From NCBI GenBank assembly GCA_964471475.1, contig CAYYFQ010000006.1, positions 75 through 64,074 on the forward strand: a stretch of DNA of 64,000 nucleotides, in the 5' to 3' direction. Position numbers and translations under genes: made by a program. Source of the DNA: an uncultured Gammaproteobacteria bacterium. Lineage in GTDB: Bacteria; Pseudomonadota; Gammaproteobacteria; CAISUE01. Under the pieces are notes generated by a model, which did no database searches, was not told the DNA's origin, and saw nothing but the letters and a program-made list of their open reading frames with translations. Shown here piece after piece: positions 13,527 through 24,831 of this stretch; position 1 is the stretch's first letter, and every line of letters starts with the position of its first letter.

Positions 13527-13692
13527 TATATACCCATCGTACCTGAAGATACTGGATTCTAACGTTGTCTTTTCCGCAAGCTAAAACTTTCTTTCGCTTA
13601 GAATAGGACTGACTATTCCGCGTTCAAGAAAGATGTTATCTTGCAAAAAATTCCTTGTTATAACCCAGCATCTTCAAGGACGATGGGTATAG
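13527..13692. repeat. ~165-bp palindromic element, copy A (27-bp terminal inverted repeats tatacccatcgtacctgaagatactgg); MITE/REP-like
   Basis: The ends are reverse complements of each other. The whole element is ~95% identical to the reverse complement of the copy at 24667-24831. Confidence 0.85.
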
Positions 13693-13827
13693 ATATTTAG
13701 TCAAGAAATGATGCGAAAAGTATGTTACTCCAATTAAGGGGAAAACACAAGATATTGTGTTTTTGTGTGGCTTGAGACACAAGAATTAGTGTTCTTAAGA
13801 GGAAAGACTGAAGGCCTTTCTAAGGGT

Positions 13828-16800
13828 TTATGAGGGGAACGCCATCGAAGGGGGTGGAGGGGGGGAAGGTTGGCAGTACTTCCAGACGGTATCCACTTCG
13901 TCTACCTCGTGATCCAGCCGCTCATATTTTTTGAGTTCCCCAATAATTTTATCCAATAATCTTTTGGTCCTAGAGGTGAATAAACCAGCGGTTAAACGTG
14001 GATAGCTTTCTTGAAAGTTTTCTATGCAGGATTTTACCATTTGAATTGAAATATAAGCGGAGGGATTAGATAGATTATTTTCGTAATCTACCGTTTTTTT
14101 TATGTGATCAATGAGTTGAGCAAGTAAGAGGATTTTCTCATTTTTAATATGGTGAACTAGTTCAAATTGTCTTGGAAGGAACCCAATTCTTTGTGCGCGA
14201 GCTTTCATGATCGTCTCATAGTGAGTACGCAAAAACTCTAAGGGATTAAGCACCCATCTGTCTAATTTTCCCTTAGTTAATGCGGATCGACGGTGTATTT
14301 TGGGAGGGAAAAAGACCAGTTGGTATTGAGGCATCGAAATAGGTTTTTGAGCGCTTCCCGAGGCATCTGCATTTTCCAAGGCGCTTTCTATGGGTGGTTT
14401 AGCGAGAGCTATTTCTACTGGTATGTGCGGGGTCGATGTTGTAATGGCTTGGTAATTAATGTCTGGATGACGAAGTGTGGGGGCTGCTCTTGATTGAGCA
14501 ATCTCAGTAAAAAGGTTAACAAGGGCGCTGACTAAAGCTTCTCGGGATGCATAGGCTGCCTGGTTCAAGAGATCGCGTATGGTAGTAATGAGAGGGTGTT
14601 CTCTAAGTGAAGGTGGTGGTGAATTTTCTCTACTATCCACCGGTACTCCCTGTAACATAGGTGGCTCCTCCCTTTCAGGTGAAGGCGCTAGTGCATTTGC
14701 TCTACCATCAACCTGCTGTACTACCTGTAACATAGGTAGATCTTCCTCTTCGGCTGGTGAGGCAGGGAGTATCTGGTTAAGATAGGCAAAAAGTCTTTGA
14801 TGGAAGCGGCCGTCAAGGGTTCTTATCGCATCAGTATTGGCAAACTTGTCGTTCTCAATAGAAGGAACATTTTGTAAAAGGTAGGCTAGATACTGACAAT
14901 TAAATTGTAGTGTATTATGTAGGGCTGTTAGTTTGCGTTGGGCTTGAGCTTCTTGTTCTTCCTTTTGTTTCTGTGCTAACAAATTCTCTGCTTGTTCTGG
15001 TCTTTCTTCCGCTCTTATTGGTTCTCCCTCTGGTTTTTCTTCGGGAGAATTATTTATTTCCATTATTACTCGTTTCTCTTCCTCTAGTTTTTTTGTTCTT
15101 AACTCAATTTCTTGTTGAATATTAATCAATAACCCTACGTATTGTTCGATAGTGAATTTTTGCCCCAAAAAAAGATGCTTGGTAGTTTTAGCGACTCTTG
15201 GAGGGATACCCAAGAGGCGTTCGTCCACGAATCGTTTTGCTTTAAATTCAGCCAGATTCTCTGTGGTGAATTTTTTGCGGGTTGGGTAGGGTTCCCATCC
15301 AGGCGCTTTTGTTGATCCAGGGATGGTGTCTTGGCGAGCTGTGCGTTCAGCAGTCATGGCTTGATGCGTTAAAGCCGTTAAATCTTCAACCCATAAATAA
15401 GTTTCATCGGAAGGAAGGTTTTTAAAAGGTATCTCTCGACGATCGGAAATTTTTGGCATTTCCGCTGCCACTCCGGCTTGCCGTTGCTTCTCCCTTCCCT
15501 CAGAAAGAGAGGAATTGCTGGATTCCTCTAATTCCTGTAATAAGCAAAGATCAGCATTCAGGGTTTCGTTGTCTGTCGAAATAATAGTATCAAGTGCTGC
15601 AAGTAGTGGATCACCAGAGGTATGCGATGTTAACTCGTTCAATAACCCATTTACTTCTGGTGAAGTAGGTATAGTTGAGTCCGCTTTATTTTGAAGTGGT
15701 ACTTTTTTCTGTAAGGCGAGTTCTGTGGCAATTGCCATAGCTTGATTAAATAGCTTTTTGTTTGCTGATTTTTTTCGTAACGCGTTATTTAAAGGTTGTA
15801 ATGAACATAGCACTGAGCGTAATGCGGTAACAGGTGGTAGAGGTCCTATGTCCTTATGTTGGCTAAGGGCCGTGTGCCAGGTAGTAAGGGTGGTTAATTG
15901 GCTTTCTAAATTAGTTAATGAAGTTTGAAAAATTTGATGCTCTTTGCTAGTAAGGGGTGAGGTTTTTTCAAGAAGACGCAATTGAAGATCAAAAATTTTG
16001 TCGGTTAAAATCCGATGTTCTGTTTGATAAGTGGGTAGAAATGCTTGCGCTGCGGCAGCATTCTCTATGTTAGACAATGAGGCCTGTTTCCTTCCCATCT
16101 CCTCCACAATAGCGCGCGCGCGCGCGTAGCTATTATAAGAAGAAAAAAGTGCTTTGGCTTTCTCAAAGCGTGTCACTCCTATTTCTAAATCGTACCATTC
16201 TGATCTGAATTGAGCTAGCATTTCTTCACATTCAAGCAAGCTTAATTCATACATCCCAGTGCCATTATTTCTAGCCAAGTACTGTTCTTGTAAGTAATTG
16301 AGCTTAAGAAGCAAAGAGGTGTAAGTCTTTAAGAGTTTTCGCGTATCTCGAAGCCTAAGGAAATTAAAGAATCCAAATTGTTTTTGAAAGTCGTAAATTG
16401 CTTTGCAATCTTGCAACTGTTGGATACGGTCAGCAGCCGCTATTTTTAATTGCGCACTCTCATAAAATGCTTTATGGGGTTTGGGGTCTTGAACGGGATT
16501 TTCTGCAACCGCCATACGAGCGTAAACGGCATTAATATCCCCTCTTAGTTTGCCTTGGTGAAGTTGAAGTAAGAGGCTTCTTGCTTCGCTTAATCGCAGG
16601 AGTAATTGGCCTTGTGAAAGTGGTGCATTTGCTTGGAGGGGGGGTGCTAGCGATGGAGGTGGATTTTCCGGTTGTTGAAGGTTATGTTTTTCTAATGTGG
16701 CTAACTGAGCTTTCAGGGTATCTAGTTGGGGCTGCATTATTGCTAGAAAGCTATCGACTTGTTCAACCGTAGATAAGGTAGAGCTGGTGCTGTAATTAAG

Positions 16801-24036: not shown

Positions 24037-24543
24037 TCAACCACCCACAGGCTGAAAGCCACACCAGTTACAATTGTCAACGAAAACTGTTACCTCGCTA
24101 GCTACAAAGGGAGTAACAGGCGTATGAGCGTCTAAAGCAGTAATGGTGAAAGTCAATTGATGGCTTTGTGGGTTATAGTGAGGTTCGTCGAGAATCACTA
24201 AATCTTGATGGTACTGTTTACCATTCATGCCCACCGCAACAATGGCCGCATTGGGATGATCAAGCGTAAAATTATTTTTGCCACTGGCGGCGCTCCAAAG
24301 CGCAAGGAAATTTTTTATAGTAAGTGAACCGGCAGCACGATTAGGGCGATCTGAAAAATAAACCACCTGTTCATGCATGGGAGTAAGCTGTAATACATAG
24401 TGATGATTTGCGGTTTCTTCTAACTTGCCATGATTCGCATGCAACACATAAAGCAAGCTGAGCGGCGCCGACGAATTGGCAAAAGCAGTCGAGATACAGA
24501 AATTGAAACAAAGAATGGCAAAGAAGTAGATAATTTTTTTCAT
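24037..24543 (-). CDS. Hypothetical secreted protein (168 aa)
   Basis: Signal peptide MKKIIYFFAILCFNFCISTAFA. The longer ORF-track version (to 24717) runs into the palindromic element and was trimmed to the MKK start. Confidence 0.45.
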   Translation of the reverse strand: MKKIIYFFAILCFNFCISTAFANSSAPLSLLYVLHANHGKLEETANHHYVLQLTPMHEQVVYFSDRPNRAAGSLTIKNFLALWSAASGKNNFTLDHPNAAIVAVGMNGKQYHQDLVILDEPHYNPQSHQLTFTITALDAHTPVTPFVASEVTVFVDNCNWCGFQPVGG

Positions 24544-24666
24544 GTGAGATACTCGTTTTTTAATAGGGTTAGGGTGATTAAAATAATCAGCTGAAAAAAC
24601 ATAGCTTAACATATTTTGTATCAAGATTGGCACTTCTGTTACAACTTCCGTTACAAACGCTCTGTG

Positions 24667-24831
24667 TATACCCATCGTACTTGAAGATGCTGGGTTATAA
24701 CAAGGTATTTTTTGCAAGATAAAATCTTTCTTGAACGCGGAATAGCCAGTCCTATTCTAAGTGAAAGAAAGTTTTAGCTTGCGGAAAAGACAACGTTAGA
24801 ATCCAGTATCTTCAAGTACGATGGGTATATA
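24667..24831. repeat. ~165-bp palindromic element, copy B (inverted relative to the copy at 13527)
   Basis: Reverse complement is ~95% identical to copy A. Same 27-bp terminal inverted repeats. Confidence 0.85.

Follow-up and report, generated by a model that had tools for sequence, protein, structure and literature searches.

Two inverted repeats around an 11-kb block of a gammaproteobacterial chromosome: very probable independent insertions of an IS630-family MITE with ERIC-type ends

When two copies of a repeat face each other across 11 kb of a bacterial chromosome, do they delimit a segment that is inverted to some purpose, or are they two insertions of a small transposable element whose orientation is incidental? 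The locus studied here raises this question. It lies within a 64-kb stretch of DNA (the window, by which we mean the whole of the DNA analysed), and the original prediction had treated the block between the repeats as a potential invertible segment. In our view it is very likely that a non-autonomous transposon (MITE) of the IS630 family, with ends of the ERIC type, was inserted here twice and independently, and that the inverted arrangement of its two copies is incidental.

The repeat and its copies in the window

The two full copies are each 163 nt long, including the TA at either end. Copy A (13529-13691, forward) is flanked by the start of nrdA (13457) and by the NrdR operator of nrdA, and copy B (24667-24829, reverse) by the stop of a 473-aa ORF (24953) and by a small secreted-protein gene. 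Two inverted copies of ~95% identity had been predicted; at the refined bounds they agree in 157 of 163 positions (96.3%, six mismatches), lie in opposite orientation, and have a longest perfect run of 52 nt in common. The similarity ends sharply at the TA...TA boundaries, beyond which the flanks are unrelated. The 27-bp terminal inverted repeats that had also been predicted are present at all four ends: a 27-nt pattern is found in copy A at 13529-13555 (plus strand; TATACCCATCGTACCTGAAGATACTGG) and, with one mismatch, at 13665-13691 (minus strand), and in copy B at 24667-24693 (plus strand) and 24803-24829 (minus strand). These make four occurrences in the 64-kb window (at zero or one mismatch), against 0.00 expected from 100 shuffles.

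Each copy is an imperfect palindrome from end to end, with arms of 56-61 nt that are 77-82% complementary, and each folds as RNA into one predicted hairpin (-77.4 kcal/mol and z = -12.0 for copy A; -69.9 kcal/mol and z = -10.9 for copy B). All four ends carry a TA, reading TA/TACCC...GGGTA/TA, as expected of an IS630-type insertion; the TA may be a target duplication or may belong to the element itself. A 163-nt element with IS630-type ends and without a transposase gene fits its earlier description as MITE-like and non-coding: it has no coding capacity, and the only reading frame to enter a copy is a spurious extension. This is the TTG-started ORF at 24037-24717, whose first 17 codons come from within copy B. 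As had been predicted, copy B creates its N-terminal extension; the likeliest start is M59, an ATG at 24543 (MKKIIYFFAILCFNFCISTAFA) followed by a signal-peptide-like sequence, so that the gene of the small secreted protein probably extends over 24037-24543 (minus strand). The element also explains a second spurious N-terminal extension, that of the ORF at 82-987.

An older, diverged half copy lies at 105-187 (plus strand), bringing the copies visible in the 64-kb window to two full and one half. It corresponds to the right half of the element, from apex to end, with 79% identity over 53 nt and an intact terminal repeat (TATACCCATTACACCTGAAGAT, 166-187, minus strand). Its start coincides exactly with the apical loop, and there it adjoins another, unlike palindrome of 104 nt (1-104).

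Terminal sequences, IS630 elements and ERIC

The suggestion that the terminal repeats match those of an IS encoded elsewhere was borne out by two IS630-family elements. One, of 1099 bp, lies in a Legionellales MAG (L034:4422-5520); its end, TATACCCATCGGACCTGAAGATGCGAAC, matches the window end, and it encodes a 338-aa protein that scores 221.5 bits on the NCBIfam IS630 model (cutoff 100) and contains Pfam DDE_3 and HTH domains. The same IS is also present at contig ends (L041, L068, and L102), and the MAG of L034 contains in addition a 110-nt MITE that has a CCTGAAGATACTGG end (L057). The other, with a transposase 45% identical, is carried by a Vibrio campbellii plasmid and ends in TATACCGAATCAACTTGAAGATGCAGGC. 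The ends of both likewise read TA/TACCC...GGGTA/TA; terminal sequence and TA flanks are common to the two IS630-family elements and the window element, from which they differ in having a transposase gene. In the L034 element, the motif CCTGAAGATGC is found only at the end beside the C terminus of the transposase, the other end being TAATGGAGTTGC, whereas the window MITE has the motif at both ends, as the Vibrio element has a form of it at both. No IS630 transposase was found by tblastn in the 64-kb window.

We infer that the element moved in trans. An IS630-type DDE transposase, supplied at present or formerly by a full-length element in another part of the genome, would bind the ~27-nt terminal inverted repeats, excise the 159-nt element, and insert it at a TA dinucleotide, which would be duplicated; in this way both copies would have entered intergenic DNA between genes of the minus strand. 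A base-exact empty site was found for neither copy; L139, the closest relative in which synteny around nrdA is conserved, lacks the MITE in front of that gene, but its intergenic DNA is too diverged for base-by-base alignment.

A scan with a 17-base pattern derived from the ends of the window element (TATACCCAT-N4-CNTGAAGAT) found at least 56 distinct elements, of 93-367 nt, that are bounded by paired ends of the window type; they come from about 29 assemblies, most of them gammaproteobacterial. Some tens of single matches to the pattern can be expected by chance across 596 Gb, and the count is therefore restricted to paired-end elements. A class of 127/128 nt, which carries the exact scan pattern on one side, is ERIC itself: in E. 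coli it aligns over 91-100% of its length with 77-82% identity, in 5426 of 5426 genomes and at a median of 7 places in each, and the ERIC core is present in the E. coli example, with a local score of 26 where shuffles reach no more than 13. The ends of the two elements are of the same type (TATACCCATCGTACTTGAAGATGCTGG in the window, TATACCCTCCTACTTGAAGCTGCAG in the E. coli example), and both have TA termini, a whole-length imperfect palindrome, an intergenic site, and no coding capacity.

Their interiors differ. Against the 44-nt central core consensus of ERIC (GTGAATCCCCAGGAGCTTACATAAGTAAGTGACTGGGGTGAGCG), the window element reaches a local score of 7, which is the shuffle mean; its interior as a whole resembles that of ERIC at shuffle level, and its apex reads AATAGGACTGRCTATT where ERIC has its core. 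ERIC, named MITEEc1 in ISfinder nomenclature, has been described as a member of the IS630 family (PMC11434687), with termini listed as TA (Table 1, PMC2229807) and a unit length of 127 bp (PMC2229807), as against 163 nt in the window. ERIC is an element of enterobacteria and vibrios, whereas the window belongs to an uncultured, Dot/Icm-carrying (Legionellales-like) gammaproteobacterium. The window element shares the type of terminus and the TA ends of ERIC/IRU in the strict sense and lacks its core and its ~127-bp length.

The interior is instead that of a Legionellales-type subfamily of 163/164 nt, which is common to the window, Legionella yabuuchiae, an uncultured Legionella, and another MAG. 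In this class the hairpin is conserved over its whole length, with 25 of 64 pairs keeping their pairing despite changes on both sides. The wider non-ERIC branch, with elements of 147-315 nt, occurs in Legionellales, Shewanella, Parashewanella, Colwellia, and others, and has IS630/ERIC-type ends and a conserved apical palindrome, AATAG-N4-6-CTATT. A metagenome scan with an arm pattern specific to the subfamily gave 13 matches, none of them preceded by the terminal sequence and all attributable to chance; plasmid and phage collections searched with the element gave no match, and no named Legionella MITE of the window type was found in the literature searched. No Rfam family matched anywhere in the window at gathering thresholds, copy A at permissive E-values hit only MIR4208, a generic hairpin model, at 23.9 bits (cutoff 140), and a tRNA scan of the sequence found none.

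Other known repeats resemble the window element in design. The Correia elements of Neisseria (CREE/NEMIS) measure roughly 100-200 bp (PMC2229807) and lie near genes, whose expression they are reported to affect, and they are reported to be cut by RNase III (PMC2229807, PMC10969869). Their general design is like that of the window element, with terminal inverted repeats of about 24-26 nt starting TATA, a TA target duplication, and a long transcript hairpin (the last two predicted for the window element), but the two have no sequence similarity, and the window element has no identified IHF site or promoter. We know of no partner transposase for the Correia elements, unlike the window element, for which the partner type is evidently IS630. 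QMITE2 of Coxiella burnetii, also a member of the Legionellales, is similar in size (150-190 bp), in location (intergenic or 3′-UTR), and in its strong hairpin (PMC5896051). It has variable direct repeats of 7-11 nt and a GTAG REP core targeted by IS1111 (PMC5896051), none of which is seen in the TA-flanked window element with its IS630-type ends, and an identity with QMITE1 or QMITE2 was rejected. Identities as an attC/integron site or as REP/BIME were dropped as well, given the IS630-type, TA-flanked ends and the lack of R′/R″ or GTAG features.

The nrdA leader

Directly outside copy A lies nrdA (10605-13457, minus strand), which encodes the large subunit of class I ribonucleotide reductase (Ribonuc_red_lgC 649 bits, with an ATP-cone). 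Its predicted operator is a pair of NrdR boxes at 13745-13792 (13745-13760 and 13777-13792, minus strand), inside the bracketed block. These are the only two matches in the 64 kb; the conserved positions C4, A6, A8, T9, T11, and G13 are kept in 6/6 and 5/6 cases, and the 16-bp linker agrees with the 15-16 bp rule for such pairs (PMC13584703). Copy A separates nrdA from its NrdR operator. L139 has the same NrdR box upstream of nrdA and no MITE there. Since copy A stands between the operator/promoter region and the start codon, the nrdA transcript probably contains it as a long hairpin in its leader.

This position makes it worth asking whether the elements are mainly RNA-level regulators, either exapted MITEs or sRNA genes. 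The hairpin in the nrdA leader, and its counterpart upstream of the gene for the secreted protein, would then govern how stable the mRNA is or how it is processed. Such a role would be compatible with a MITE origin and has parallels, as the hairpins of ERIC (in Yersinia) and Correia elements (in Neisseria) are reported to affect mRNA stability via RNase E and RNase III (PMC2229807, PMC10969869). The great stability of both folds, the location of copy A between operator and ATG, the compensatory changes that keep the whole-length hairpin across subfamilies, and the conserved apical palindrome are in its favor; a fold-back origin, however, would leave palindromy without any selection, and no Rfam family matches. 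A simple consensus scan found no promoter- or terminator-like sites around copy A; for copy B it gave three weak promoter-like matches (9/12), one of them within the element (24697-24725, plus strand), and one terminator-like site outside it, counts that are close to shuffle expectation. The two copies, moreover, face opposite ways relative to the surrounding minus-strand genes, so that they share no orientation-specific role. We regard a mainly regulatory nature as unlikely. Still less probable is that the non-ERIC branch is a structured element exploited by its hosts, such that copy A adds hairpin-dependent post-transcriptional control of nrdA, or that rare recombination with copy B serves as an nrdA off switch.

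The bracketed block

The gene content predicted for the block was recovered. Its first gene (13828-17280, minus strand) encodes a lineage-specific protein of 1150 aa (1146 aa from the first ATG), a coiled-coil candidate rich in L, A, E, Q, and K and without a Pfam match; Pfam identifies an E2 acyltransferase (18919-20208, minus strand), an SppA/S49 peptidase (20205-21176, minus strand), and ClpB (21391-23970, plus strand), and the small proteins of the block have signal-peptide-like N termini. The closest relatives show 86% identity in ClpB and 81% in NrdA. They keep the internal arrangement of the E2-SppA-ClpB trio (18919-23970), and gene order beyond it differs among all of them: relatives found via ClpB (L117-L119) share only a small 80-aa gene and the trio, those found via NrdA (L136-L140) share only the TGT...IcmW-NrdA side (a synteny kept in L139 together with the NrdR box), and otherwise they differ from one another. 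No copy of the element was found near the relatives' clpB, in up to 10 kb fetched per side.

The claim that the 11-kb block is a potential invertible segment was not supported. Programmed inversion systems such as Hin/Gin/Cin, FimB/E, and the shufflons resemble the window in having inverted repeats that bracket a segment. They differ from it in having a recombinase gene, whereas the repeats of the window are copies of a transposable element, and in what is inverted, a promoter or alternative gene ends as opposed to 11 kb of housekeeping genes. Pfam scans of 40 ORFs across the window, among them all ORFs of the block, detected neither a recombinase nor a transposase; several ORFs had no Pfam match of any kind. 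GC3 skew (plus strand) is positive for 6/6 block genes, with the sign and size seen in the flanks, and the block is therefore unlikely to have spent appreciable evolutionary time in the inverted state. Half of all random MITE pairs, finally, can be expected to lie in opposite orientation.

A functional invertible segment would be one whose flipping alters expression at the junctions, for example by turning nrdA off and on through its NrdR-controlled promoter. Inverted repeats of 163 nt with 96% identity and a 52-nt perfect run are enough for homologous recombination, and inversion would have a regulatory consequence: with the operator on the block side of copy A and nrdA outside, it would detach the gene from its operator. 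An OFF state would be costly, class I ribonucleotide reductase being normally essential. With no site-specific recombinase found in the block or among the other ORFs scanned in the window, a trio that relatives keep in the same arrangement, and a GC3 skew like that of the flanks, we consider such a switch very improbable. Copies A and B may, rarely, recombine through RecA and so invert the block; this would disable nrdA regulation, not switch between two working states, and would probably be selected against because nrdA would lose its operator. We take the 11-kb interval to be ordinary chromosome, dedicated neither to inversion nor to mobility, and nothing indicates a functional switch.

It is extremely unlikely that copies A and B, together with the intervening DNA, make up a composite transposon, an 11.3-kb unit mobilised from its outer ends by an IS630-type transposase. 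Window-type ends do bracket short gene-carrying segments elsewhere (L022, 1644 bp with a transporter-like ORF; L079, 847 bp; L090, 1432 bp), and synteny with L139 stops at the intergenic region upstream of nrdA, the site of copy A. The cargo, however, would consist of core genes (E2, SppA, and ClpB), which relatives hold in the same arrangement without an element copy on either side of clpB over the distances searched, and an operator inside the supposed cargo with nrdA outside is what a simple MITE insertion in the nrdA leader predicts, not the arrival of a foreign block; the TA flanks are uninformative here. An assembly artefact, in which the segment between the inverted repeats of a presumably metagenome-assembled contig was joined in the wrong orientation, can be given hardly any credence: ClpB and NrdA of the window each match just a single NCBI protein exactly, on one contig of 84,410 bp, the nearest relatives are MAGs, and repeats of ~160 bp are near read length, but the copies differ at six positions and share no identical run longer than 52 bases, so that ordinary k-mers or reads resolve them, the continuity of GC3 skew over both junctions supports the assembled orientation, and the operator is on the correct side and strand for nrdA.

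Two independent insertions of an IS630-family MITE remain the reading that we favor, and the locus reveals no new kind of system and no new invertible switch. For genome work, the element marks repeats that are able to break or mis-join metagenome assemblies. At the locus itself, what biological interest there is lies only in the position of one copy in the nrdA leader, with the NrdR operator on one side and the gene on the other. For the family, ERIC-type, IS630-mobilised MITE ends are seen here, with interiors that differ, in Legionellales-like and marine gammaproteobacteria, well outside the enterobacteria and vibrios.

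Inverted copies of a TA-bounded hairpin element

The inverted repeat pair of the original prediction is real: copy A (13529-13691, plus strand) and copy B (24667-24829, in the opposite orientation) each measure 163 nt including a TA at either end, share 157 of 163 bases (longest perfect run, 52 nt), and lose their likeness sharply at the TA...TA limits. Both are imperfectly palindromic over their full length, and RNA folding gave one hairpin per copy, at -77.4 kcal/mol for A and -69.9 kcal/mol for B (z of about -12 and -11). Four sites in the window match the 27-nt terminal pattern (0.00 expected from shuffles), and a diverged half copy lies at 105-187. 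Copy A is flanked, in minus-strand sense, by TAAATATC and TAGAGCAT on either side of the TA-bounded element, and copy B, on the plus strand, by GCTCTGTG and TACGACAA; before insertion these sites would have carried a single TA (TAAATATC-TA-TAGAGCAT and GCTCTGTG-TA-TACGACAA, in the same senses). A tRNA scan found no tRNA genes in the window, and no Rfam family matched the window or the element. The near identity of copies A and B speaks for recent amplification; the half copy, which has diverged, dates from an earlier event.

Copy B has 124 nt to the gene on either side. The ORF at 24037-24717 begins at a TTG within this copy, confirming the spurious N-terminal extension that had been proposed; judged from the sequence, its real start is likely Met codon 59 (ATG at 24543), where the N terminus is signal-peptide-like. 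ORF 82-987 has a second repeat-induced N-terminal extension: its GTG start lies inside another palindrome (1-104) and it reads through the half copy, its real start probably being the Met at about 196 (MKTISPSWL...). Palindrome 1-104 is a separate 104-nt element with terminal repeats TGTGAYACTGGGTAAAG; it directly adjoins the half copy at the apical loop, as though it had inserted into an older MITE copy and split it, with the left context beyond the window start. No second copy of it was found in the window or the fetched loci. A third palindrome type, at 18277-18521, is intergenic between the genes for 222-aa and 80-aa proteins inside the block bracketed by copies A and B (arms 18311-18345/18437-18471, 91% complementary; outer arms 18277-18313/18485-18521, 73%), and may represent a further MITE family. 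Among direct repeats in the window, the largest is formed by flavin-reductase-domain paralogues at 39990-40604 and 53095-53703 (90% identical over 300 nt); a second joins 39870-39970 and 50094-50194 (101 nt, 81%).

IS630-type ends and the relation to ERIC

We scanned one genome per species (596 Gb) with the pattern TATACCCAT-N4-CNTGAAGAT, which matched at least 116 loci in at least 51 assemblies, mostly Gammaproteobacteria. The matches listed include Parashewanella, Shewanella, Colwellia, Psychromonas, Thalassotalea, Enterovibrio, Rheinheimera, Legionella yabuuchiae, several Legionellales/Legionellaceae MAGs, an uncultured Coxiella and a Pseudomonadales MAG. Because tens of single matches to this 17-base pattern are expected by chance in 596 Gb, the count was confined to elements with an inverted partner end no more than 420 nt away; among the matches listed, at least 56 distinct paired-end elements (93-367 nt) occur in about 29 assemblies. 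The window element belongs to a 163/164-nt class that also occurs in L. yabuuchiae, an uncultured Legionella and another MAG. The motif AATAGG-CTG-CTATT is conserved at the apex of this class, whose members form a whole-length hairpin in which 25 of 64 pairs stay paired through changes on both sides.

A palindrome AATAG-N4-6-CTATT is also common to elements with these ends yet unrelated interiors and sizes (147-315 nt) in Legionellales, Parashewanella, Shewanella, Colwellia, Thalassotalea and Enterovibrio (for example, at L008:6204-6367, L088:158-321, L098:2429-2575, L014:3268-3534 and L006:735-1001 of the fetched loci). It forms the hairpin tip in the 147- and 163/164-nt classes, is off-centre in longer elements, and is absent from ERIC-class elements. 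In other genomes, short gene-carrying segments also lie between ends of the MITE type, and may be cargo units bounded by them: 1644 bp in L022 (minus strand, a 453-aa transporter-like ORF), 847 bp in L079 (136-aa ORF) and 1432 bp in L090 (185-aa ORF).

The prediction of a MITE-like repeat holds, and its terminal repeats do match those of an IS encoded elsewhere, in other genomes; tblastn found no IS630 transposase match in the window. A full-length partner element of 1099 bp, flanked by TA, lies in a MAG of a related order-level lineage, Legionellales (L034:4422-5520), with TATACCCATCGGACCTGAAGATGCGAAC as the end adjoining the transposase C terminus. Its 338-aa product scores 221.5 bits on NCBIfam IS630 (cutoff 100) and has Pfam DDE_3 and HTH domains; the IS is also found at three further contig ends in its MAG, which in addition carries a 110-nt MITE (L057) with a window-like end, CCTGAAGATACTGG. 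An IS630-family element on a Vibrio campbellii plasmid has the ends TATACCGAATCAACTTGAAGATGCAGGC and TATACCCGTGATCATTGAAGTTGCTTG and a transposase 45% identical. Homology of the ends, TA flanks, a wide family and the Legionellales partner IS are observed. In the proposed mechanism, a DDE transposase of IS630 type acts in trans, recognising the ~27-nt ends and inserting the element at TA, and we infer that this took place in the source genome.

A 127/128-nt class with these ends is ERIC, described as a TA-terminated MITE of 127 bp (PMC2229807) and, as MITEEc1, placed in the IS630 family (PMC11434687). One of its ends matches the scan pattern exactly and the other is a diverged IS630-type variant. 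It matches all 5426 E. coli genomes, at a median of 7 places per genome (77-82% identity, 91-100% of length); an E. coli example has the ERIC core and the terminus TATACCCTCCTACTTGAAGCTGCAG. The window element, however, has only its ends in common with ERIC: neither its core sequence nor its length is that of ERIC, and its interior aligns with the ERIC core and interior no better than shuffled sequence does. The two ends of the L034 element differ after TATACCCATCG (CCTGAAGATGC versus TAATGGAGTTGC); ERIC-class MITEs have one end of each type, whereas the window class has two of the first type, which suggests that one IS end gave rise to it by folding back. Correia elements are a functional analogue. 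In a large census, 99.6% of Legionella genomes carried MITEs (PMC11602168); our literature search found no description of a 163/164-nt Legionellales subfamily. By design and ends the window element is an ERIC-type, IS630-family MITE, best regarded as a new subfamily within a known kind.

Orientation of the block and the nrdA leader

ClpB and NrdA each have a single NCBI protein as their one exact match; the nearest relatives beyond it are MAG and metagenome proteins (ClpB 86%, NrdA 81% identity; Legionella ClpB about 76%), and the collections contain no genome of the same species. IcmW (10046-10510; Pfam PF23130, 142.7 bits) adjoins nrdA (10605-13457, minus strand), as it does in a relative with nrdA synteny (L139), which indicates a Legionellales-like organism carrying a Dot/Icm type IVB secretion system. 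Nearby ORFs without a Pfam match (1150, 473, 493, 439, 383 and 639 aa) could be effectors.

The ~11-kb block had been considered potentially invertible. It encodes an E2 acyltransferase, SppA, ClpB, small proteins with signal-peptide-like N termini and a protein of 1146/1150 aa that has no Pfam match and is rich in L, A, E, Q and K; Pfam scans found recombinase or transposase families in none of the 40 ORFs across the window. Relatives keep E2(-)-SppA(-)-ClpB(+) but differ from one another outside this trio, and the stretches of up to 10 kb fetched to either side of their clpB carry no copy of the element. In L139 (NrdA 77% identity), TGT...GcpE-MurG-...-IcmW-NrdA is kept and synteny stops at the intergenic region upstream of nrdA. 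All six block genes have positive plus-strand GC3 skew (0.125-0.27), irrespective of coding strand, as do the flanks (means 0.11 and 0.23); whole-segment skew is 0.099 in the block versus 0.085 and 0.048 in the flanks.

The window has two NrdR boxes and no others, at 13745-13760 and 13777-13792 (plus-strand sequences ACACAAGATATTGTGT and ACACAAGAATTAGTGT). Separated by a 16-bp linker, they form the nrdA operator just within the block, with nrdA outside it, and match the conserved positions (PMC13584703) at 6/6 and 5/6. Inversion of the block would therefore part nrdA from its operator and, presumably, its promoter. Together, skew continuity, the lack of a recombinase among the 40 ORFs and the housekeeping content, and the operator placement argue, indirectly, against working or frequent inversion. 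Homologous recombination between 163-nt, 96%-identical repeats is physically possible, and would be rare and probably deleterious. The invertible-segment reading is unsupported, and the pair are ordinary mobile repeats.

Copy A lies between the NrdR operator and the nrdA start codon. Given that in L139 the nrdA ATG follows the same box by about 88 nt, with no MITE there, and that the operator is inside the block with nrdA outside, the simplest history is insertion of the MITE into the nrdA leader. A putative -10-like TAACAT (13722-13727) lies 17 nt below a -35-like TTGTGT of the proximal NrdR box, spaced as in L139, and transcription is predicted to start near 13715. Copy A is probably co-transcribed with nrdA, whose leader, of about 258 nt, would hold the 163-nt hairpin.
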